From Mustelus asterias (Eukaryota), in NCBI RefSeq assembly GCF_964213995.1, contig NC_135830.1, forward strand, positions 10,726,001 to 10,790,000: 64,000 bases of DNA, written 5' to 3'. Below are positions 1 to 55,640 of the stretch, piece after piece (position 1 is the first letter of the stretch; the number at the start of each line of letters is the position of its first letter). The notes under the pieces are model-generated. The model was not told where the DNA came from, searched no databases, and saw only the letters and a program-made list of their open reading frames with translations. The position numbers were made by a program, and so were the translations under genes.

Positions 1-934
1 AATTAAATTGTTGATCATATTGTTTAATTGAAAAGTAATTAAATTGTTGATCATATTGTTTAATTGAAAAAGTTACACATAAAACAGTACAAAACACAAT
101 GAGGACAATTTATTCAAATCCTCTGCAAGACTGAGACATGATGAAAAATAAGTCGAGATTTTGTTCTTCAGTTTAATATTTAATAATAATTAAACAGAAG
201 TTTCAGATTGAGTAAATTCGTCTGTGCTGACATTTGTTCTTCCTATCATTTTATTCTGTCTGCAGCAGTATTGGAAGACAGAATGTTATTGCTAGGAGCA
301 GAACTAATATAAAACTTCCGTAATTAAACTAATCAGTGTGAATTTCAAGCATTTACTTGCCGTTGTCTGGCGAGCACCTGTCGACACCTTACCACAATTC
401 AAAAACCAAATGAACAATTACTTCATGCTAGCGAACTTCAGCTCTCAGAAAACTGTTTAAGATTAGAGTAGTGATTAATTATCTATCGACATATTACTTT
501 AAAGCAATAATTTGGCTGCGCCTGCAACCGAAAAAAAATGCAATAACAGGATACATACATTACCAAACTGCAATGTAAAACTCCTATTTAAGTGACGGTA
601 AACTTAATTAGCGCAAAACGATTGTTTCAAAATATCTTGTTGAACTAAACGTTGATGTGGAATCAGCCTGTACTCATTGAAATAGTTTCAGAAATAATCA
701 CAAAATGTTTTCAGCCTAGAACCTTTCTCGTTTATGTTAATTGTGTGCAATGCACAGCATAGTTGTGAAAGGGGATTAATGATATCAACATCAAATATTT
801 TTGGTGAATAAGGAGTACATTACCGCGAAGCAATTGTTTCAATTATATTAATTTCACTCTACAAACTTCAAACTTGTTAAGTAAGTATTGATTGTAGCAA
901 TGAATTATATTCTGAATGATTTTTTTTCAGCCAT

Positions 935-2365
935 GCTGTATTTTAATCTGCAATCATCATTTACATTTATAAAAGTGTATCTTTATTTCATTTTTTTCCG
1001 AAACCTGCCTGTTTTTTCCCCGACAATCGTGCTAAAGTATTTTCAAATGCATTGAACCAGAAGACGTGGCACCACGCAGTGTCAACCAGTTTAAACAATG
1101 CAGAAGCAATACCGAAACTCCAAACCATTCCACAAATTATAAACATTTTAAGTCACCCAGATACACAATCTCCTCAGCAGAAAAATACTAAAACACATCA
1201 CCGAGGGAATGAACCCCGTTTTATGGAGAAGCAGCTCAATTATCCATTCAACAGAAATAAATGTAACATCGCACGAAGATCTCAATACGGAATCCAGCAG
1301 AAGATCTCGTCACCAAATTATTAAACTAAACAGCAATCTGGAATGATAACAATAATATTGTGAAGAGGTGGAATATGTCCAACAAATTAATATTGAAACT
1401 TTATCACATTTTATTCATATTGGATCACATTTCAAAGAGACTTCAAACATATTTAAACATTTCGATGGGAAAAGCTGCAGCCATCAGATGCCACCGAAAT
1501 TAAACATTGCAGGTATCACAAATTGTGAATTCAGTGACAAACTATGTTCTGAACGAACGGCGTAAACCGTGCCTTAGTTTAATCTGGAATTATCATTTGA
1601 GATTTTTTTTAAAAACTGCAATAAATCTTGCCTGAGTTCTGCCTGCAATCATGCGTCAAGCAGTTTCAAACGTGTTGAATGTTTGTATTCAATCACAAAG
1701 AGTGTAACAGCTCAGTGTCACCGAGTGTAAACAATGCAGAAGCAATACAGAAACACCAAATCATTTCACACATTTTACTTATTCAAAGTCACCCAGACAC
1801 ACAACCACCTCACCACAAAAAAACACATCACTGAGGGACTGAACCCCATTTCATGCAGAAGCAGCTCAATTCCACAAATACTTTCAACAGAACCAAATGT
1901 AAAATTGACAGAGAATCTCAATATAAAATCCAGCCAATCTGTTAATGACAAACCCAATTAATAATTAAATGGACAGAAATATGCCACAACAACACGAGAT
2001 TTGTGAGCAGACGGAACATGATCACTAAATTAATACAGCAATTTTAACATATTTTGTTAATATTGGGTTACATTTCAAACACTTGTGCAGTAGATGGTAC
2101 AACTCGCAGCTATTTGATGTCACCGAGATTAAACATTGCAGAAACGCATAACTGTTTAACAGAAGTTCGGTATTTACAGTAACCCAGCCACACAATGCCC
2201 TCAACAGATAAACACCAAATCACAGCAACCAGAGATTAAATAACTTAGCAGCACCTATTGTCAAGAAGCAGCAGAACTTTTCAACCCTTTCAGCAAAATC
2301 ACATGGACCATTGCAAAATATCTCAATAAAAAATCCACCAAACCCACATTTCAATTAGTTAATGA
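935..2365. repeat. Diverged ~636-bp tandem repeat in the JH-C intron (two clear copies plus a partial third)
   Basis: cagtgtca..aaacaatgcagaagcaatac..aagtcacccaga.acacaa starts at ~1077 and ~1713; ttaaacattgcag occurs at ~1500 and ~2129; a partial copy lies at ~2175-2365. Confidence 0.75.
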
Positions 2366-2438: not shown

Positions 2439-2485
2439 CTGCAGTCACCGTCACCGTGGTCCCTTGTCCCCAGGATGGGAAGTGT
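2439..2485 (-). other. IGHJ: Immunoglobulin heavy-chain J segment
   Basis: Minus strand translates to HFPSWGQGTTVTVTA (WGxG motif), ending at a phase-1 donor G|GTAAG at 2439/2438. Confidence 0.96.
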
Positions 2486-2524
2486 CACTGTGTTACATTC
2501 TCTGGGCTGCACCATACATTAACA
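2486..2524 (+). promoter_or_regulatory. JH recombination signal sequence, 23-bp spacer
   Basis: Heptamer CACTGTG at 2486-2492, 23-nt spacer, nonamer ACATTAACA at 2516-2524. Confidence 0.9.
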
Positions 2525-2810
2525 TGCTCTAAACACAATAGACCATTATTTTAAATATTCACAAAGCACAAGGCAAGTAAATCAATGAAGCCTTTCGCTC
2601 TTCATAAATGACCCTAATGATTTATATTTCACAGAGTAACACATGAACATGTTATTGAAAACAACAACTGATAATCGAACAATTATCATCGAGTTTGCAT
2701 TTTAATTCTTGCCATTCGGGCAATGCTGATCATCGAGAGTACTATACTGAAATTATAGTTGGATTATAGAAGTGACACTGATCCAGCCTCAATCAGTAAG
2801 TGCTGAAAGG

Positions 2811-2889
2811 GGTTTTTGTATTGACGGTAACAGCTGTGCCTGCCAGTTCGACCCAACATATCACAGTGACACACACCCGCACAAAAACT
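2811..2889 (-). other. IGHD: IgH D segment (coding 2839-2861, ATATGTTGGGTCGAACTGGCAGG) flanked by two 12-bp-spacer RSSs
   Basis: GGTTTTTGT (2811-2819) + 12 nt + AGCTGTG (2832-2838) on one side; CACAGTG (2862-2868) + 12 nt + ACAAAAACT (2881-2889) on the other. Confidence 0.95.
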
Positions 2890-3241
2890 GCACTCACTCT
2901 CTGTTCAGTACTGCCGCTCACTATTCACTTCAAATAGAACGTTATTTCTGATCTCATTTATCAGTTAGGCAGCAGTTTATCGATCACAAAGTCAGACATA
3001 TTAAAATAAGCATTATTTGCAGGTCTGGAAGTGTTGAAAGTGTCAATAATAAATATAACCACAGCCACAGTCCAACCCCGTTTTCTATGTTTGTCTGTTA
3101 CGTTTTACCGTTACATTTTCGCTGTGTTAGTTTGGTAAGAATCAGCTAGTTGTCTGGTTCAGATCATTGCAGTTAATATTACATGTACAAGAGGTACTGA
3201 ATTTCAGGTTGTGTTGGAAGTTGTTAAATTCCTTCTCGAAC

Positions 3242-3280
3242 TGTTCTTGTCCGGGGGCAGCCCTGGTCCCTATCGCTGGG
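3242..3280 (-). promoter_or_regulatory. VH 23-RSS with defective heptamer (CCCAGCG)
   Basis: Minus strand after TGT ACA TAT: CCCAGCG (3280-3274), 23-nt spacer, ACAAGAACA (3250-3242). Confidence 0.85.
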
Positions 3281-3582
3281 ATATGTACAGTAATAGATGG
3301 CGGTGTCTTCGTTCGTCAGACCAGTCATGTCCAAAGCGAAGGTATTACTTGAAAGGTCTTTGGACGCTGTAAATCGATACTGAATCCCTGGGGAGTAATT
3401 GTTGCTCGATGAACTTGTGTCGTCAAGGAGCCAGTCCAACCCCTGTCCGGGAACCTTTCGGATCCAGTTCATCCAGTCGCTGTCAAGATTGAAGCCACTG
3501 GTTTTACAGGTCAATCTCAGGGAGCCTCCGGGACGCCCGGTCGCTGCCTCTGGCTGAGTCAACACAACCTGCGACTGGACTC
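3281..3582 (-). CDS. IGHV: IgM-type heavy-chain V exon (open frame, unrearranged; probably non-rearrangeable)
   Basis: Acceptor ttttacag|GA at 3583/3582. Translation [66 protein letters not shown] has both conserved Cys and the Trp, and frameworks I recognise as shark IgM VH. Confidence 0.95.
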
Positions 3583-3706
3583 CTGTAAAAATATATCAAA
3601 ATCCCCAAAGATTAATCCTGGCGAAATGATTGCTGAATCTGGAACATTTCAGAGATTGGTTAACAGTGGCTAACAGTGAGAGTCTTGGACAATAAAAACT
3701 ACTCAC

Positions 3707-3752
3707 TGGATAAGAAAGCCAGCAACAAACTGAGAGAAATCGCCGACCTCAT
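3707..3752 (-). CDS. IGHV: IgH V leader exon
   Basis: ATG at 3752 (another in-frame ATG at 3764); MRSAISLSLLLAFLS + A|GTGAGT donor; phase 1 splices in frame to the V exon. Confidence 0.93.
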
Positions 3753-4329: not shown

Positions 4330-4547
4330 ACATTACACAATGTCTCCTGACTATCCTCAAAATACCCGTAAGCCTCAGGCAGTCCTCTGAAGATTAGCTG
4401 CAAAAGAAACCCGCTTGTCTGATAATTAAGCACTGATAATTAGAACATTACACAATGTCTCCTGACTATCCTCAAAATACCCGTAAGCCTCAGGCAGTCC
4501 TCTGAAGATTAGCTGCAAAAGAAACCCGCTTGTCTGATAATTAAGCA
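4330..4547. repeat. Near-perfect tandem duplication (~103 bp, period 115)
   Basis: acattacacaatgtctcc...ctgataattaagca starts at 4330 and at 4445. Confidence 0.92.
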
Positions 4548-5145
4548 GTGAGCTAATGGAGAAACATAAAATCGGCATCGACTTTTGACAGAGAAGTTAA
4601 TGAATCAGAACGGACAGGGCTACGAGTAGAGGTATCTTCCAGCACACAAATCATTGCAGCTCATTTTATTGGCCACCGGTTGTCGCCCATTCACTGTTAT
4701 TGGGAACACAGGATATCAGGACTTTGCAGCACATTACACAATATCACAAGAATGAATGGTTTTATCTACCACTGAATCAGTTAGAAACTAATCATTTCTG
4801 CACTCATTGGCATCTGTGAGAGCGACTGTTAAACAAACGAAATCAGATTAAACTGTACAACAGAACACGGTGCTAATCAGGTTTAAGTGACGAGCCGTTT
4901 ACATGAGGAGCAGAACTTTCTGAATATTCCAAGAATCCCCGCTGTTCAAGGCAATTTTATGATTTTCTTATAATTTTATTTCTTTTCATTTTTTGCTATT
5001 ACACCGATCTCATTAGACTAACGGATTGTGACCATTAACATCTCTCTCTCGCATTTCATCAAGTTGTTGACAAACAGACATTAATCATTAGATTGACATT
5101 TAATTGAAAGTTACACAAATTAAATGTCATCTATTCACTCTGCTG

Positions 5146-5363
5146 TTTTCTGAACTAGTTAATCACAGAATGAACAGGATATTCATTGAAAATATTTGTT
5201 TAGAAGACATTTAAAATATTTTCTGAACTAGTTAACCATAGAATGAGCAGGATATTCATTGAAAATATTTGTTTAGAAGACATTTAAAATATTTTCTGAA
5301 CTAGTTAATCCCAGAATGAACAGGATATTCATTGAAAATACTTGTTTAGAAGACATATAAAAT
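5146..5363. repeat. Minisatellite, ~73-bp unit x3
   Basis: ttttctgaactagttaa..agaatgaacaggatattcattgaaaata.ttgtttagaagacat repeated three times with no unique spacers. Confidence 0.92.
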
Positions 5364-5864
5364 GTGCCTTTCTGCGATAATGAAAAATGTATTGCTTGAA
5401 TGTTTGAATCCCATTTTCTCCACTCACATTCATGGCAATCTGTCCCACACAGTATTTGGCAACAATCCAGCCTGCTGTCAAACGCCCAATGTTATTTTTA
5501 GGAAACATCTGGGAGTGTTTGTGCAGTAGTTCAAAAATCTGTTTCCTCTGTACTGATCGCGTGGCTGCAAGTGAACTTCAATCTCTTACCATTGTCAATG
5601 AGACCTATTTATAAACTAATCTACCCAGCAACAGTACTGAAGACAATTTAATTTTTAAAGTTGAAAAGCTATTGTTCTCATCTATCAGGAAAGGGAAAGT
5701 ATGCAGCTTCTCTAACACCTTATTATCAACAGGGATGATCTATCGAACACATCATGGACATTGCGATGGATGGATAGAAAGAAATATAGATGCACTGAGA
5801 GATAGCTCAGGGGATATATTTTGTAATGCATAAACATGTATGTTTATGTTTTCTTTCTGCTTGT

Positions 5865-13299: not shown

Positions 13300-15895
13300 A
13301 GAACAAGAACAAAGAACAAAGAACAATACAGCACAGGAACAGGCCCTTCGGCCCTCCAAGCCCGCGCCGCTCCCCGGTCCAGGATTGAATCCTGAATCCA
13401 GGATCCCCGCCCAATTTTCCAGCCTATCTACATCCTAATATCCTATCCACCGAGCTGTCCCTCACAGCTACGATGCTTTGTTCATCACAACCTATTAACT
13501 CACCCCCACCCCCTCATTCCAGACCATGTGATCTCCAGGGAGAGGCGACAACCCAGAGTGAAAACCCCAGGGCCAATATGGGGAAAAACAAATCTGGGAA
13601 ATTCCTCTCCGAACCCCTGAGGCGATCGAAACGAGTCCAGGAGATCACACTGGCCCTGATCGGAAAATGCTTCCCAACCCGATTCATTTCCACTTCTGCT
13701 TTACGAACACCATCTGAATTCCCTGCCCCCGAGACAGGTTCCCAACTATCCGCAGTCTCGCTCTGTACTGGCACCAGCAAGATGATCGACCGCAAACTTA
13801 CTGATCACCCCAGTTACTCCTTCTTCCAGATCATTTATATAAATCACAAACAGCAGAGGTCCCAATACAGAGCCCTGCGGAACACCACTAGTCACAGGCC
13901 TCCAGCCGGAAAAAGACCCTTCCACTACCACCCTCTGTCTTCTATGACCAAGCCAGTTCTCCACCCATCTAGCCACCTCCCCCTTTATCCCATGAGATCC
14001 AACCTTTTTCACTAGCCTACCATGAGGGACTTTGTCAAACGCTTTACTAAAGTCCATATAGACAACATCCACGGCCCTTCCTTCGTCAACCATTCTGGTC
14101 ACTTCTTCAAAAAACACCACCAGGTTAGTGAGGCATGACCTCCCTCTCACAAAACCATGCTGACTATCGTTAATGAGTTTATTCCTTTCTAAATGCGCAT
14201 ACATCCTATCTCTAAGAATTTTCTCCAACAACTTCCCCACCACGGACGTCAAGCTCACCGGCATATAATTACCCGGGTTATCCTTCCAACCCTTCTTAAA
14301 TAACGGGACCACATTAGCTATCCTCCAATCCTCTGGGACATCACCTGCGTCCAGAGACGAGACAAAGATTTGCGTCAGAGGCCCAACAATTTCACCTCTC
14401 GTCTCCCTGAGCAGCCTTGGATAGATTCCATCAGGCCCTGGGGATTTGTCAGTCTTTATATTCTCTAACAAACCGAACACTTCCTCCTTTGTAATGGAGA
14501 TTTTCTCCAACGGTTCAACACTCCCCTCCGAGACACTCCCAGTCAACACATCCCTCTCCTTTGTGAATACCGACGCAAAGTATTCATTTAGGATCTCCCC
14601 TACTTCTTTGGGCTCCAAGCATAAGGCCCCACTTTTGTCCCTGAGAGGTCCGATTTTTTCCCTAACAACCCTTTTGTTCCTAACGTATGAATAAAATGCC
14701 TTGGGATTCTCCTTAATCCTGTCTGCCAAGAACATTTCGTGACCCCTTTTTGCTCTTCTATTTCCCCGTTTGAGTCCTTTCCTACTTTCTTTGTACTCCT
14801 CCAGAGCTCCCTCCGTTTTTAGCTGCTTGGACCTAACATACGCCTCTCTTTTCTTTTTGACCAGTCCCTCAATTTCCCTGGTTATCCACGGTTCTCTAAT
14901 CCTACCCTTCCTATCCTTCTTTTTTACAGGCACATGCTTGTCCTGTAGCCCTAACAACCGTTCCTTAAAAGACTGCCACATACCAGATGTGGATTTTCCC
15001 TCAAACAGCCTCTCCCAATCAAGAACTGCCAATTTCTGCCTGATCCCACTAAAGTTAGCCTTCCCCCAATCCAACACCTTACCCTTGGGACACCACTCAT
15101 CCTTTTCCATCACTATCCTAAAGAATTGTGGTCACTATTTGCCACATGTTCCCCTACCGAAACTTTGAAGACCTGACCGGGCTCATTCCCCAGTACCAGG
15201 TCCAGTATAGCCCCCTCTCTAGTCGGACTGTCTACATATTGTTCCAACGAACCCTCCTGTACACATTTTACAAATTCCTCCCCATCCAGAGTCCCTGCCC
15301 TCAGCGATTTCCAGTCTACACCAGGGAAATTGAAGTCTCCCACTACAACAACCCTATTTTTCCTGCACCTATCCAGTATCTCCTGACATATCCATTCTTC
15401 CACTTCCCTTGGGCTGTTGGGGGGCCTGTAGTACACCCCCAACATAGTGGCTGCGCCTTTCCTGTTTCTAAGCTCCACCCAGAGTGACTCGTTACACGAC
15501 CCCTCTGAATTGTCCTCCCTCTGCACCGCTGTAATATGCTCTCCAACTAATACCGCTACTCCCCCTCCTCTTTTGGCCCCTCCTCTGTCTCGCCTAAAAC
15601 ACTTGTACCCCGGAATATTCAGCTGCCAGTCCTGTCCCTCTTTCAACCAAGTCTCTGTCACCGCAACCACATCCAAATTCCTCGTGCGCATTAAGGCCCC
15701 AAGTTCGTCTGTCTTACCTGCTACGCTCCTTGCATTGAAGTATAAGCACTCCAGACCTCCAGGCCCAGTGAGGTCGTCCTCCCCCAGAGTGCTCTTCTTC
15801 TTTGCCAGCCTTGTCCCAGCCCCAAGCTCGTCCCCAGCCTCCACACCTGTAGACCTAATATTTTGATCCTCACCCCCCTGCCATACTAGTTTAAA
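13300..15895 (-). mobile_element. CR1 LINE (endonuclease + partial RT) with a replaced RT C-terminus
   Basis: ORF 15113-15844 (YFNARS, VTETWL, GDFNFP, SDH) and frameshifted ORF 13746-15113 (RT up to GVISKFA). 13300-13787 is non-RT sequence ending in the standard CR1 tail. Confidence 0.93.
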
Positions 15896-18597
15896 CTAGT
15901 GTCAAACAAATTTGTCCTGCTTTTTAGAATTATATCAGTGAGACTGTGTACCCGGTCATCAACCCGAAATGTGAATCTGCTTCTCTCTCTCTGCAAATGC
16001 CGACTGACCTGCTGAGTTGCATTTTTGTTGTTTTTTAGTTTTGTGAAATCTGTAGTACTTTGCACTGTTTTGCTCATTCCCTGGATCTCGACATCACTGA
16101 CAAAGTCAGCATTAAAAGCCCGTCTTGAGAAGGTGGTTGTGAACCACCTTTATGAAAACCTGCCCTCTAGTCGGTTTTATTATTGTTTGACTTTCTACAG
16201 CAGGCTTGATATAGCTGAATGGCTCTTTCTACTATTTCAGAGGAACTGTGGAACTGGAGAGACATGTGGGACAGACAGGGTAAACATAGGAACTTATAAA
16301 ATGTGAACAGGAGTGGGCCACTGGGTCCTTCGAGCCAGCGCCTCCATTCAACATGATCATGGCTCATCCTCTATCTCAAGGCCACATTCCTGATTTCTGC
16401 CCACAGCCCATCATAACATTAAAATCCAAACAGACTATCTCTTTCTTGTTTATATTCAGTCAATTGACATCAATAGCCTTCTATTCTGGAGCATTCCTCA
16501 GGTTCACTCCTCCGATAATGAATCAGACAGTGTCAGTTCTTACTTTACTATAAAAAGCCCCTGATAGAGAGACAGAGCGAGCTCGGTGAATAGATGGATA
16601 TTACCTTTAAAAAATGGGTCTGTGGGTGAAAGGGACAATTATTTTTGGTTGGAGGAATATGCGTCGAGTTGTGAGGTGCTGTGTAAAATATCTAATTGTT
16701 CTCGTATTGTGCGTAATATTTTGTTGAAAGACGGGTGATTCCCGTAATATTCTCTTATTCAAAAGAAATTGAGGAACAAAAACAAACGTGCAAAGTTGCA
16801 CTGCAAATAGACACTGAGGGGCAATTTAGCATGACCAATCCACTTAAGCTGCACCTCTTTGGGCTGCGGGAGGCAACTAAAGAGACTTTGTGCCTGAAAA
16901 GATAAATCACAAAAATCTCATCAGAGGAAAATTCAGTGCTAGAAACAGATTACTTCACATACTTAATCTGTCGCCTCGCTTTCTCTCATAAAACACCAAA
17001 CACACTTAAAACTTTCTATTTTAGAATACCTCTGTGGGCCAAATCGTTGGTTGAATTTGCCCTCTTTTCTCCCAATCATTATGTCCTTTCAGTTGATGCG
17101 TTAACACCCAAATATTGTTATTTCTGTTTTTGTTTAAACTGGGAATGGAGGTGAATGTCATGCTGAGACTGGCAGCAATATTTGTGGTTGCTTTTGATGC
17201 TGTCAGAGCGAAGTCACCCTCACAGGCCAGAAGACTGTTCACGGTGATAACATCAAACTGACGCCGCCTGTTCTATTCTCAGGTAATACAACTTCCTGTC
17301 TCTATGCTGCCGGTTCCAAACCGCACATCTCACGTCTGAGCAGAAAATAAATCCAGGGACCACAATCTGGTGACAACATCTGTCAATGCGGCCTATATCT
17401 GTCTACAGAGTCAGGGCAGAGTCACACAGATCACATTGTAGTGACATTCACAAATAAGCCTGTTGTGATCTTTTCAGAGCTTCCATTCCAGGACGTAACC
17501 GGATGTTCAGTGGATCAGTCACTGAGCTCCCTCTGTTCTCTGAAGCCGGGAAATGATAGCTTGCTACCTTTTATTGTTTTAACATCCTTTCTCTATCTAT
17601 CCCTGCTCTTTATTGAGACTAAATAAAATCGTATATTTATACAGCTGACGTATTGTGCTAATCCTGTCTTTCGACGGAACTTGAGTGTGTGTGCGGATAA
17701 TTGCCAGGGACCATTCAGAAATTGATTACTATTTACAATCCATCGCTTTGAGCAGAGTAACACGAGATTGAACTTGTTTCGGAAAAGCAGAATTACCTTA
17801 AATTTTTGTTGCACTATTTTTTGCTCCCATAAGGTTTTGATGTTTTAACTTCTGAGTCATCAAATGTCTTCAGCTGAATATTTAAACCCTCGCTTGTACA
17901 AGCTGCTGGTTCTGACATTGATCTGTCTGTGTAAGTAGCGAACTATGGTAAGAATGAGAGAGAACATATGATTTTCTGTTTCTCTGACAGATTCACCGTT
18001 TTCACCTCAAATATCAAAAATGTCTAGAGTCTGCCATGATTGTCCTCCCCTTGAGAATATCAGTCGTTTGTCAGGCGGAGTCAGTCATTTCTGCGTTTTT
18101 TAAATCGTGTTTCCACTCCGTGTTTGCCACACAAATTCCTGGGTCACTCACAATGACTCAGAAACCTGCGATAAGGCTCTAAGAATCATTGCTTTCTTAT
18201 GTTAAGCACCAGTATTTCCACAAGCCCGCAGTTTCTGCTAAACGGGTAATTCAAATTCCAATACTCTAATTCTTTACGATTATTGTTCAAAACGTTACCT
18301 ATTCAGTTCTGAATAAGGATCTATCTCTGGTTTGGTATATTTGACTCCTCCCAGTTACAATTAGACAAAATGTTTTTTTTTCTGGAACGATCACACAAAT
18401 AACTTTACTGTTTATTCTAATGTTAGAGCAGGTATTTCTTGTTCCAATATTTGTTTATGTTACTCTCACGGGCAGTTTATTGTATCATTGCGCTGGCATA
18501 TCTGTCTATATTCATCATTTATGGGTTGCGGGCGGTGCTGGGAATGGTCAGCATCGTTGCTCATCTCTAATTTCCCCAGAGAAAGTGGTCACTGAAG

Positions 18598-27394: not shown

Positions 27395-28723
27395 AAAGCT
27401 CTGGAAAAGAATGGTTCAATCAAGCAGATGCAGCATGGCTTCATGAAGGGAAAGTCATGTTTGACTAATTTACTGGAATCTTTAGAGGATATAATGAGTG
27501 CGGATGACAGAGGGGAACCGGTGGATGTGGTGTATTTAGATTTCTAGATGGCATTCGAAAAGGTGCCTCACAAAAGGTTGCTGCATAAGATAAAGGTACA
27601 CGGAGTTGAGGAGTGTTAGCGTGGATTGAGGATTGGCGATCTAAGAGAAAGCAGAGAGTCGGAATAAATGGGTGCTTTTTCAGTTGGCAATTAGTGACTA
27701 GTGGCGTGCCGCAGGGATCGGTGCTGGGGCCTCAACCATTTACCATATACATAGACGATCTGGAGGAGGGGACCGAGTGTAGGGTAACAAAGTTTGTGGA
27801 TGACACAAAGATGAGTGGGAAAGCAAATTGCGTGGAGGACACAGAGAGTCTGCAGAGAGACTTGGATAGCCTAAGTGAGTGGGCACGGATCTGGCAGATG
27901 GAGTATGACGTTGGTAAGTGTGAGGGTATCCACTTTGAAAGGAATAGGAGTAAAATGGACTATTATTTAAATGGTGACAAATTACAACATGCTACTGTGC
28001 AGAGGGACCTGGGGCTCTTTGTGCATGAATCACAAAAACTCAGTTTGCAAATGCAGCAGTTAATCAAGAAGGCAAATGGAATGTTGGCCTTTATCGCGAG
28101 AGGGATGGAGTATAAAAGCAGGGAGGTCATGCTGCAACTGTACAGGGTACTGCTGAGGTCGCACCTCGAGTACTGTGTACAATTTTGGTCCCCTTATTTA
28201 AGAAAGGATATATTAGCTTTGGAGGGGGTACAGAGAAGGTTCACCAGGTTGATTCCGGAGATGAGGGGGTTAGCTTATGAGGAGAGATTGAGTGGACTGG
28301 GCCTGTACTCATTGGAGTTTAGAAGGTTGAGGGGAGATCTTATAGAGACATACAAGATAATGAAGGGGCTAGACAGGGTAGAAGCAGTGGGTTATTTCCA
28401 CTTACAATGGAAACAAGAACTAGGGGCATAGCCTCAAAATACGGGGGAGTCAATTTGGAACAGAGTTGAGGAGGAACTTCTTCCAGAGGGTGGTGAATCT
28501 TTGGAATTCTCTGCCCAATGAAGCAGTAGAGACTACCTCGTTAAATGTGTTTAAGTCACAGATAAATAGATTTTTAACCACTAAGGGAATTAGGGTTTTG
28601 GTGAGCGGGCGGGTAAGTGGAACTGAACCCACTATCAGATCAGCCATGATCTTATTGAATGGCGGAGCAGGCTTGAGGGGCTAGATGGCCTATTCCTGCT
28701 CCTATTTCTTATGTTCTTATGTT
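27395..28723 (+). mobile_element. CR1 LINE 3' part inserted into the tRNA-Gln array
   Basis: ORF 27613-28431 ([26 protein letters not shown]); tail cttatgttcttatgttc. Confidence 0.93.
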
Positions 28724-51875: not shown

Positions 51876-54800
51876 AAAAGAAAGAACAAAGAACAAAGAA
51901 CAGTACAGCACAGGAAACAGGCCCTTCGGCCCTCCAAGCCTGTGCCGCTCCTTGGTCCAACTAGACCAATCGTTTGTATCCCTCCATTCCCAGGCTGCTC
52001 ATGTGACTATCCAGGTAAATCTTAAACGATGTCAGCGTGCCTGCCTCCACCACCCTACTTGGCAGCGCATTCCAGGCCCCCACCACCCTCTGTGTAAAAA
52101 ACGTCCCTCTGATGTCTGAGTTATACCTCGCCTCTCTCAGCTTGAGCCCGTGACCCCTCGTGATCGTCACCTCCGACCTGGGAAAAAGCTTCCCACTGTT
52201 CACCCTATCTATACCCTTCATAATCTTGTATACCTCGATTAGATCTCCCCTCATTCTCCGTCTTTCCAAGGAGAACAACCCCAGTCTACCCAATCTCTCC
52301 TCATAGCTAAGACCCTCCATACCAGGCAACATCCTGGTAAACCTTCTCTGCACTCTCTCCAATGCCTCCACGTCCTTCTGGTAGTGCGGCGACCAGAACT
52401 GAACGCAGTACTCCAAATGTGGCCTAACCAGCGTTCTATACAGCTGCATCATCAGACTCCAGCTTTTATACTCTATACCCCGTCCTATAAAGGCAAGCAT
52501 ACCATATGCCTTCTTCACCACCTTCTCCACCTGTGTTGCCACCTTCAAGGATTTGTGGACTTGCACATCTTGGTCCCTCTGTGTTTCTATACTCCTGATG
52601 ACTCTGCCATTTATTGTATAACTCCTCCCTACATTATTTCTTCCAAAATGCATCACCTCACATTTATCTGGATTAAACTCCATCTGCCACCTCTCCGCCC
52701 AATTTTCCAGCCTATTTATATCCTGCTGTATTGCCCGACAATGCTCTTCGCTACCCGCAATTTCAGCCATCTTCGTGTCATCCGCAAACTTGCTGATTAC
52801 ACCAGTTACACCTTCTTCCAAATCATTTATATGTATCACAAATAGCAGAGGTCCCAGTACAGAGCCCTGCGGAACACCACTGGTCACAGACCTCCAGCCG
52901 GAAAAAGACCCTTCGACCGCTACCCTCTGTCTCCTATGGCCAAGCCAGTTCTCCACCCATCTAGCCACTTCTCCTTGTATCCCATGAGCCTTAACCTTCT
53001 TAACCAACCTGCCATGTGGGACTTTGTCAAATGCCTTACTGAAATCCATATAGACGACATCCACGGCCCTTCCTTCATCAACCGTTTTTGTCACTTCCTC
53101 AAAAAACTCCACCAAATTTGTAAGGCACGACCTCCCCCTTACAAAACCATGTTGTCTGTCACTAATGAGATTGTTTCGTTCTAAATGCACATACATCCTG
53201 TCTCTAAGAATCCTCTCCAACAACTTCCCTACCGCGGACGTCAAGCTCACCGGCCTATAATTTCCTGGGTTATCCCTGCTACCCTTCTTAAACAACGGGA
53301 CCACATTCGCTATCCTCCAATCCTCAGCGACCTCACCCGTGTCCAAAGAAGCGACAAAGATTTCCGTCAGAGGCCTAGCAATTTCACCTCTCGTCTCCCT
53401 GAGCAGTCGAGGATAGATGCCATCGGGCCCTGGGGCTTTGTCAGTTTTAATGTTCCCTAAAAAACCTAACACTTCCTCTCTTGTAATGGAGATTTTCTCT
53501 AACGGGTCAACACCTCCCTCCGAGACACTCCCGGTTAACACGCCCCTCTCCTTCGTGAATACCGATGCAAAGTATTCATTTAGGATCTCCCCTATTCCCT
53601 TGGGTTCTAAGCATAATTCCCCTCCTTTGTCCCTGAGAGGTCCGATTTTCTCCCTGACAACTCTTTTGTTCCTAACGTATGAATACGTTCCTAACGTATG
53701 AAGCCTTAGGCTTCTCCTTAATCCTGCCTGCCAAGAACATCTCGTGACCTCTTTTTGCCCTTCTAACTCCCCGTTTGAGATCTTTCCTTCTCTCTCTGTA
53801 TTCCTCCAGAGCTCCATCTGTTTTCAGTTGCCTGGACTTAACGTACGCCTCCCTTTTCATTTTAATCAGATCCTCAATGTCCCTGGTTAACCACGGCTCT
53901 CGAATCCTACCTTTCCTATCTTTCCTTTTTACAGGCACATACCTATCCTGCAGCCTTATCAATAGTTCCTTAAAAGACTCCCACGTGCCAGACGCTGACT
54001 TAACCTCGAACATCCTCTCCCAATCAACATCCACCAATTCCTGCCTAATCCGGCTATAGTCAGCCTTCCCCCAATTTAGCACCCTGTCCGTAGGACAGCA
54101 CTCATCCTTGTCCATTACTATCCTAAAGTTAACAGAGTTGTGGTCACTATTTGCCACATGTTCCCCTTCCGAAACTTTGACGACCTGACCGGGCTCATTT
54201 CCCAGAACTAGGTCCAGTATAGCCCCCTCTCTAGTCGGGCTATCTACATACTGTTCCAAAGAACCTTCCAGTACGCATTTTACAAATTCCTCCCCGTCCG
54301 GACCCCCAGCCCTAAGCACTTTCCAGTCCGTGCCAGGGAAATTCAAGTCCCCCACTACAACAACCCGATGTTTTCTGCACCTTTCCAGAATCTCCTGACA
54401 TATCCTTTCCTCCAGTTCCCCTGGGCTGTTGGGTGGTCTGTAGTACACCCCCAGCATAGTGACTGCACCCTTCCTGTTTCTGAGTTCCACCCACAGCGAC
54501 TCAGTACACGACCCCTCTAAGTTGTCTACCCTCTGCACCGCGGTAATATGCTCCTTCACTAATATCGCTACTCCCCCACCTTTTTTAGCCCCTCCTCTGT
54601 CTCGCCTAAAACACTTATACCCCGGAATATTCAGCTGCCAGTCCTGTCCTTCTTTTAACCAAGTTTCCGTCACCGCAACCACATCCAAATTCCGCATAAG
54701 CATTAAGGCCTTAAGTTCGTCTGTTTTACCCGTTACGCTCCTCGCATTGAAGCAGATGCACTCCAGACCTCCAGGCCCAGTCAGGTCCTCCTCCTCCAGA

Positions 54801-55640
54801 GTGCTCCTCTTCTTAGCTAGTCTTGCCCTGGCCTCCAGCTCAACTCCAGCCTCAGTATTTACTGACCTCCTGTTTTGTTCCCCACCCCCCTGCCACACTA
54901 GTATAAATCCTGCCGAAACACTCTAGCAAAACTCCCAGCCAGGATATTTGCTCCCTTCCAGTTAAGGCGTAACCCATCCTTTCAGTACAGTTGCCATCCT
55001 GACTTGAAGATTTCCCAGTTATCTATGAATTTAAAACCCTCCCTCTTGCACCAGTCCTTTAACCACGCGTTCAACTGTAGAATCTCCCTGTTCCGAGCCT
55101 CACTTGCACTAGCCACCGGGAGCAGTCCAGAGATTGCTACCCTGGAGGTCTTACTTTTTAGCCTAGCACCCAACTCCCTGAATTTCTCTCGTATGACCCC
55201 CTGCTCTTCCTACCTACATCATTTCCACCAATGTGTACAATCACATCAGTTTGAGTACCTCCCTTTTTAAATATGCTTCCTACCCTCTCGGAGACACCCA
55301 GTACCCCGGCACCAGGGAGGCAGACTACCATCCTGGATTCTCGTTCAGTCCCACAGAAGCGCCTGTCCGTGCCTCTAACCATTGCGTCCCCCACAACTAT
55401 CGCTCTCCTAAACCCCTTCTTTCCCTTCCGAACCCCTGAGCCTGTCTCCGTGGAGGCGATCTGGTCCTCGTGGCTTACCCCTGGAGGGTCATCCCCCTCC
55501 ACAGAATCCAAAACAATATACCTATTTTGGAGGGGGACAACCACAGGGGATCCCTCCACAGACTGCTCACTCCCTTCCCTTCTCCCATCTGTTGCCCATC
55601 CCTTTCTTTTGTGGGAGACTGCCACTGGGGTACTTTCTGG
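51876..55640 (-). mobile_element. Well-preserved CR1 LINE: ORF1 remnant plus ORF2 broken by one frameshift
   Basis: ORFs 53672-54898 (endonuclease) and 51961-53817 (RT with KFADDTK to the C-terminus); ORF1 esterase VVGD..VVCLPGAG within 55158-55640. Confidence 0.96.

Follow-up and report, generated by a model that had tools for sequence, protein, structure and literature searches.

A shark IgM minilocus with a single long D segment: a probable inherited D1-D2 join

Results

The stretch of DNA analysed here (the window, 64,000 nt, G000:C71:10726001-10790000) carries on the minus strand of 2439-3752 the variable part of an IgM cluster, with a leader exon, a VH exon, one D and a JH exon. Its elements, from leader to J, are as follows:

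3707-3752, minus strand: leader exon, open, with a GT donor
3281-3582, minus strand: VH exon, open; its coding end reads ATAT
3242-3280, minus strand: 23-RSS of V, heptamer CCCAGCG, in which CAC is lost
2862-2889, plus strand: V-side 12-RSS of D, of D1 type (RSS scan and flank comparison)
2839-2861, minus strand: 23-nt D, read as an 11-nt D1-like half and a 12-nt D2-like half
2811-2838, minus strand: J-side 12-RSS of D, of D2 type (RSS scan and flank comparison)
2486-2524, plus strand: 23-RSS of J, heptamer CACTGTG, weakened nonamer ACATTAACA
2439-2485, minus strand: JH exon, open in this copy, with a GT donor

The first-pass annotation of this DNA had reported a single RSS-flanked D of 23 nt with a 12-spacer RSS on each side. 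An RSS scan of the whole 64-kb window confirmed this and detected no second RSS-flanked D between V (3281-3582) and J (2439-2485). All three frames of the D are open. The reported spacing of ~350 (V-D) and ~290 (D-J) also held, at 352 and 286 nt from nonamer to nonamer; counted from coding end to coding start, the distances are 419 nt (V-D) and 353 nt (D-J). The V coding end lies 6 nt past the Cys codon as compared with 9 nt in other clusters, which had escaped the annotation, as had the weakness of the J nonamer. The relatives of the VH V-set domain were shark IgH V regions (62-71% identity), and no named ortholog of the focal V was found among 11 matches of 16 candidates, the best of which reached 71%. 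The 150 nt upstream of the leader are intact and identical to four other clusters at 138-143 of 150 positions.

The constant-region exons lie beyond the window, at 13.7-26 kb downstream of J, and comprise CH1-CH4, a secretory tail and TM, all of which are open and have normal splice sites. CH4 with the tail was 89% identical to a Triakis IgM heavy chain, and its best matches among solved structures were mu chains. As in shark IgM miniloci, VH, D and JH lie within ~1.5 kb and are followed by four C-mu exons, a secretory tail and TM, but the two D segments of shark IgM (12/22 and 12/12) are represented by one 12/12 D. Directly downstream of J, window positions 930-2140 contain a duplication with a 636-nt period (75-90%), and 115-nt and 73-nt tandem repeats lie upstream of the leader at 4330-4551 and 5146-5364. 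Long frames at 13700-15900, 27600-28400 and 52000-54900 resemble remnants of LINE-type retroelements.

The annotation had read the single D as a candidate germline join of D1 and D2. Comparison with two-D clusters supported this reading, with the V-side RSS and flank matching D1 and the J-side RSS and flank matching D2. Over 330 nt, the V-side flank matched the sequence upstream of D1 at 0.70-0.72 and that upstream of D2 at 0.56-0.60 (25 two-D loci), whereas the J-side flank matched the sequence downstream of D2 at 0.68-0.75 (23 loci) and that downstream of D1 at 0.54-0.57. Against three references, the nearest 60 nt on the V side agreed at 53-57 positions with the D1 5' flank and at 37-42 with the D2 5' flank; on the J side, 48-52 of 60 positions agreed with the D2 3' flank and 37-38 with the D1 3' flank. 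As the V side is D1-like and the J side D2-like, the switch from D1 to D2 falls within the 23 nt of the D. The D1-D2 interval gave no blastn match in the window and the 30 kb downstream of it. Both inner RSSs and the interval are gone, and the outer flanks come from two different segments, as in a germline join.

Unjoined paralogs, to which the annotation had pointed as a check, agreed with its expectation: the two-D clusters lack the 23-nt D, which is longer than every D1 (12-17 nt) and every D2 (9-13 nt) in G000. Alignment of the 23-nt D scored 9 against D1+D2, and -3 and -4 against single D segments. Of the D1 variants, that of 12 nt in L070/L071 fitted best; the final 12 nt of the element equal a D2 in length and carry CG where its first AT would be. 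The earlier parse, with CGA between two halves, stood for the D2-like half, which is clear, and had to be corrected for the CGA, since the A belongs to the D2 core and only CG is left. These bases had been called N-like, which is not established, as they sit exactly where D2 has AT. The joint was thus either blunt with two later substitutions, or the product of 2-nt trimming and two added bases. No P nucleotides were visible at the junction, and the TAA carried by five of eight D2 variants is absent from the 23-nt D.

The proposed D1-like start fared better for its surroundings than for its letters: the adjacent RSS is that of a D1, but the letters fit D2 about as well as D1. An alignment with D2+D2 scored 11 as compared with 10 for D1+D2 with trimming, and 8 as compared with 9 without, and the 23 letters alone cannot separate D1+D2 from a doubled D2. 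The D1+D2 score was reached by 117 of 2000 shuffles with fixed ends, a stricter test than a looser shuffle (41 of 200000) for which the pattern was chosen after viewing the sequence. Since the first half fits D1 or D2 equally, its D1 origin is argued from the adjacent D1 RSS, from parsimony and from the other joins in the genome.

Among the best 40 of 193 candidates, the same 23-nt D was found in at least four copies in G000 (L001-L004, on C71 twice, C143 and C88). L001 is separated from L002 by 3 of 4181 sites, and from L003 and L004 by 41 of 4179; some of the four may be haplotype duplicates. The D-J interval is 31 nt longer in L003/L004, the J-C intron is ~4.6 kb longer in L001/L002 than in L003/L004, from a 36-nt tandem repeat (window 1-70 and C71 just below), and the JH Trp codon is a stop in L002. 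A contig of run X1 spans 2590-2888 at a depth of 102, with a depth of 92 for the V-D interval, and a contig of run X5, from a second organism (organism B), contains 2839-2857 unchanged; both runs are without tissue label. Because the junction is common to two subtypes ~1% apart, is present at full depth in X1 and occurs in organism B, it is inherited and not somatic. The D-D join is older than the divergence from organism B. No contig bridging the D was among the pieces listed for X3 and X4, which cover the region, and none bridging the D or V-D was found in the outgroup runs X6-X9, the uncovered parts of which are uninformative. Outgroup pieces at 97-99% were obtained for V in X6 and for the D-J interval in X8.

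The organism B copy of the cluster appears, from one contig, to have been joined further into VDD-J, which the annotation had not mentioned. In this X5 contig, which is 390 nt long with a depth of 4.05 and 5 other letters, position 2857 runs directly into 3281, and both RSSs and the V-D interval are absent. At the joint, ATAT (4 nt) fits either side, and the VDD-J keeps to frame 2 of the D, which is open. Its depth is on par with that of the other X5 pieces of the cluster (2.56 and 3.5), so that a germline joint is favoured, on this one contig. The ATAT adjoins both heptamers of the focal cluster, and an overlap of more than 2 nt occurs in 0 of 53 other parsed clusters. In most ordinary clusters the last four letters of V and the first four of D1 agree at three of four places, a match that is possibly the relic of an overlap. 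For TCR alpha, selection has been described that favours a joint-steering overlap (PMC10322711), and such selection may also have acted on ATAT.

The V heptamer begins with CCC in 4 of 57 parsed V RSSs, all four being the focal copies L001-L004, and the other 53 begin with CAC, which is also read in L076, outside the 57. The annotation had missed this CCC, from which the pieces listed for X1, X3 and X4 do not differ. According to the available text of PMC10536018, CAC is needed for appreciable RAG cleavage. With CAC lost, V is predicted to be uncuttable by RAG, and the focal gene in G000 is probably no longer able to rearrange, though its V and C exons are open.

The focal cluster belongs to an old lineage: the nearest other clusters diverge from it by 0.155 (V), 0.233 (V-D) and 0.199 (D-J), and the dS of the C region is 0.22-0.28. 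No other IgM in G000 is as divergent, and in the CH1, CH2 and CH4 trees (support 70, 55 and 94) the focal cluster falls outside a group made up of ordinary G000 clusters and Triakis IgM. Its C-region dN/dS to ordinary clusters is 0.33-0.41. On its stem, pN/pS is 0.54 (19 synonymous and 37 non-synonymous changes) as compared with 0.11-0.24 between ordinary clusters, in a comparison that includes CH3 from one of five ordinary clusters only and from which CH1 of c28 was dropped for length. These substitutions indicate a C region that is constrained, but relaxed. Since the stem pN/pS is above the ordinary range, they give no more than a hint of past function. The CH1 exon (G000:C71:10714419-10714707) showed 86% identity to the Scyliorhinus protein P0014 and 75-80% to the IgMs of G000 itself, a pattern absent from CH2; an old orthologous lineage is a possible source of this likeness.

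Sixty-eight loci, picked by likeness to the queries and with duplicates included, were examined and their states read by hand. They comprised 45 unjoined two-D clusters, 10 single-D clusters with a V RSS, 6 VD-D-J, 4 VDD-J, 2 V-D-DJ and one locus with an IgM V-D1 joined to a TCR-delta D. The single-D loci are the four focal copies, L045, L046, L051 and L052, and L072 and L073, which gives three or four other single-D lineages in G000. L045 and L051/L052 are clear independent D1-D2 joins without added bases. L047, L046 and L074 fall together in the trees of V and of D-J, with the states V-D-D-J, V-DD-J and VDD-J, respectively; the junction of L074 was found in X5 (organism B) too, and its joint is in the same register as that of the focal cluster in organism B, with V whole and D minus 4 nt. 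VD or VDD joints, mostly without added bases, were observed in L077, L069, L075, L078, L080, L066-L068 and L079, that of L077 with palindromic bases. At the D2 position of L021, D2 RSSs surround D1-like letters identical to the D of L046, which suggests conversion between D segments. Joints present on one contig only may be somatic.

Discussion

The hybrid flanks, the loss of both inner RSSs and the presence of the same junction in two organisms are best accounted for by an inherited germline D1-D2 coding joint of RAG type, to which we assign a probability of about 0.82. In a germ cell, RAG, the presumed enzyme, would have cut at the 22-RSS of D1 and at the 12-RSS of D2. The two coding ends would have been joined almost blunt, with deletion of the ~380-nt D1-D2 interval, giving V-DD-J. 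The cluster would then have been used for long with two somatic joins and not three, as is suggested by the conserved D-side RSS and by a C-region dN/dS below 1. Later, in the G000 lineage, the A of CAC in the V heptamer would have become C, halting V-to-D joining, and the four G000 copies are probably young non-rearranging pseudogenes. In organism B, a second germline join, of V to DD over the ATAT overlap, would have given rise to the open-frame VDD-J.

A route independent of RAG is unlikely. On this route D1 would have been lost by crossing over, or by a deletion, between its 5' RSS and the similar 5' RSS of D2, and D2 would later have been lengthened by a 10-11-nt tandem duplication or an insertion. 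In keeping with such a route, an ungapped D2+D2 alignment agrees at 17 of 23 positions, L072/L073 are hybrids of a D1 RSS and a D2 RSS with D2 letters only, and the D1-like letters in the D2 place of L021 indicate that D segments are exchanged. However, it requires two events, the two halves of the D no longer resemble tandem copies, and a doubled D2 occurs in 0 of 4 other single-D lineages, L045 and L051/L052 being plain D1-D2 joins. Moreover, a D2-like D1 joined to D2 would be a coding joint all the same. Less probable still, at about one fifth of that weight, is a cluster that natively had a single D which was always long. Although the focal cluster diverges more than any other IgM of G000 and falls outside the ordinary clusters and Triakis in the three C-region trees, its two flanks correspond to different Ds of the two-D clusters, which is unpredicted unless the two-D clusters derive from it. 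We regard a somatic V-DD-J intermediate of a lymphocyte, or an assembly error, as the least credible origin. V-DD-J is a common intermediate in shark thymocytes (PMC2435157, available part), and L096 (C850) and L097 (C401) carry TCR-delta V-D joints with differing junctions, which may be somatic and are possibly lymphocyte molecules in the assembly, but two subtypes that differ by 1% have an identical focal junction, which X1 covers at full depth and organism B shares.

The ATAT border lends itself to the reverse history, in which the ancestor was VDD-J and RAG transposed an excised 23/12 V-D signal-end fragment into the V-D junction, with ATAT as a 4-bp target-site duplication. Such a duplication of 3-5 bp is a published criterion of RAG transposition (PMC2193156, PMC2193153, in the parts available), the ATAT lies directly against both heptamers, with an overlap above 2 nt in none of the 53 other parsed clusters, and organism B carries what would be the empty site, with one ATAT. 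On the other hand, V ends and D1 starts already agree at three of four letters, and drift led to a 4-nt overlap in 2-4% of simulations. No donor was found among the best 40 of 63 candidates, the V-D interval occurring only in the four copies (next match 74%), and this interval, with a divergence of 0.233, matches the D-J interval (0.199) in age. The start of the D is accounted for by a CpG change from an L070-type D1, and the joint of L074 has the register of that in organism B. In mouse thymocytes, events recovered with both ends included no duplication-bearing insertions in the available text of PMC2118463. Because drift can complete the ATAT match, no donor is among the scored candidates, the interval is old and L074 shares the register, we hold this history to be very improbable, between the RAG-independent route and the natively single D.

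The inherited D1-D2 joint resembles the germline-joined elasmobranch IgM clusters, for which partial joins of the types VD-J, VD-DJ and VDJ are described (PMC5192425, PMC4279169, in part), in that the inner RSSs are gone from inherited DNA and unjoined sisters exist in the same genome (PMC5192425, PMC2193153). Unlike these, as far as the available descriptions extend, it joins only D1 and D2 while V and J keep RSSs, and it goes beyond them in that CAC has since disappeared from its V RSS and a second join is apparent in a relative. A commentary (PMC2193153, available part) lists "V DD-J//C, VDJ//C, V D1-D2J//C", where "V DD-J" is ambiguous and may mean VDD-J. In type III IgNAR of the nurse shark (PMC4622739, available part), D1 and D2 are likewise fused in the germline, which removes one rearrangement step, but that gene has three Ds and neonatal expression, whereas the focal one is an IgM of two-D type with a defective V RSS in G000. 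The same V-DD-J configuration is formed in nurse shark thymocytes, where RAG at times joins D1 to D2 first (PMC2435157). There it is a product of the single cell, whereas the focal V-DD-J is inherited and common to two species.

The germline-joined NS4 light chains (PMC2193156) share with the clusters examined here repeated independent joins, little sign of TdT and clean removal of RSSs. NS4 is a light chain with complete VJ, and its split genes, in the available text, lack a 3-5-bp duplication, as compared with the 4-nt V/D repeat of the focal cluster, which is probably due to drift. In nurse shark IgM1gj (PMC5192425, PMC4279169), a divergent IgM subclass is also combined with germline-joined variable segments. 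IgM1gj is described as fully joined and without CH2; the focal cluster has CH2 and is not fully joined, and its CH1 is 57% identical to that of IgM1gj and does not group with it in the tree. The incomplete join, the presence of CH2 and the lack of grouping rule out that the focal cluster is IgM1gj.

Since partial germline joins in sharks are already known, the single D adds little by itself. The literature searched, which is covered in part, gave no clear account of an IgM that is V-DD-J in the germline, so an earlier report is possible; for IgM the term V-DD-J was met only for the somatic state, in the available part of PMC2435157. Of more value is the order of events. One cluster found as V-DD-J in a first shark but seemingly as VDD-J in a near relative, together with a second lineage that has all three stages in one genome, shows germline joining that advances in steps on the same cluster, often along short overlaps. 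As about one third of the 68 sampled loci are partly joined, many joints with unjoined sisters are at hand for testing RAG and TdT in germ cells. The ATAT border is also a concrete candidate case for an old question, namely whether a joined gene can be split again by an excised RSS fragment. Whether excised DNA reinserts in this manner was asked by Lee et al. (2000; PMC2193156), who, in the available text, found no duplication mark; if true, re-splitting would be the germline event that they sought without success, with the empty site surviving in organism B.

At one locus outside the IgM series, L007/L094 (G000:C138:217380-218400), V and D1 of IgM are fused to the 3' portion of a TCR-delta-type D with a 23-RSS, and TCR J segments follow. 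The locus is an IgM-TCR trans-join, germline or somatic, and unjoined copies of its TCR-delta-type D were found at L095, L098 and L099.
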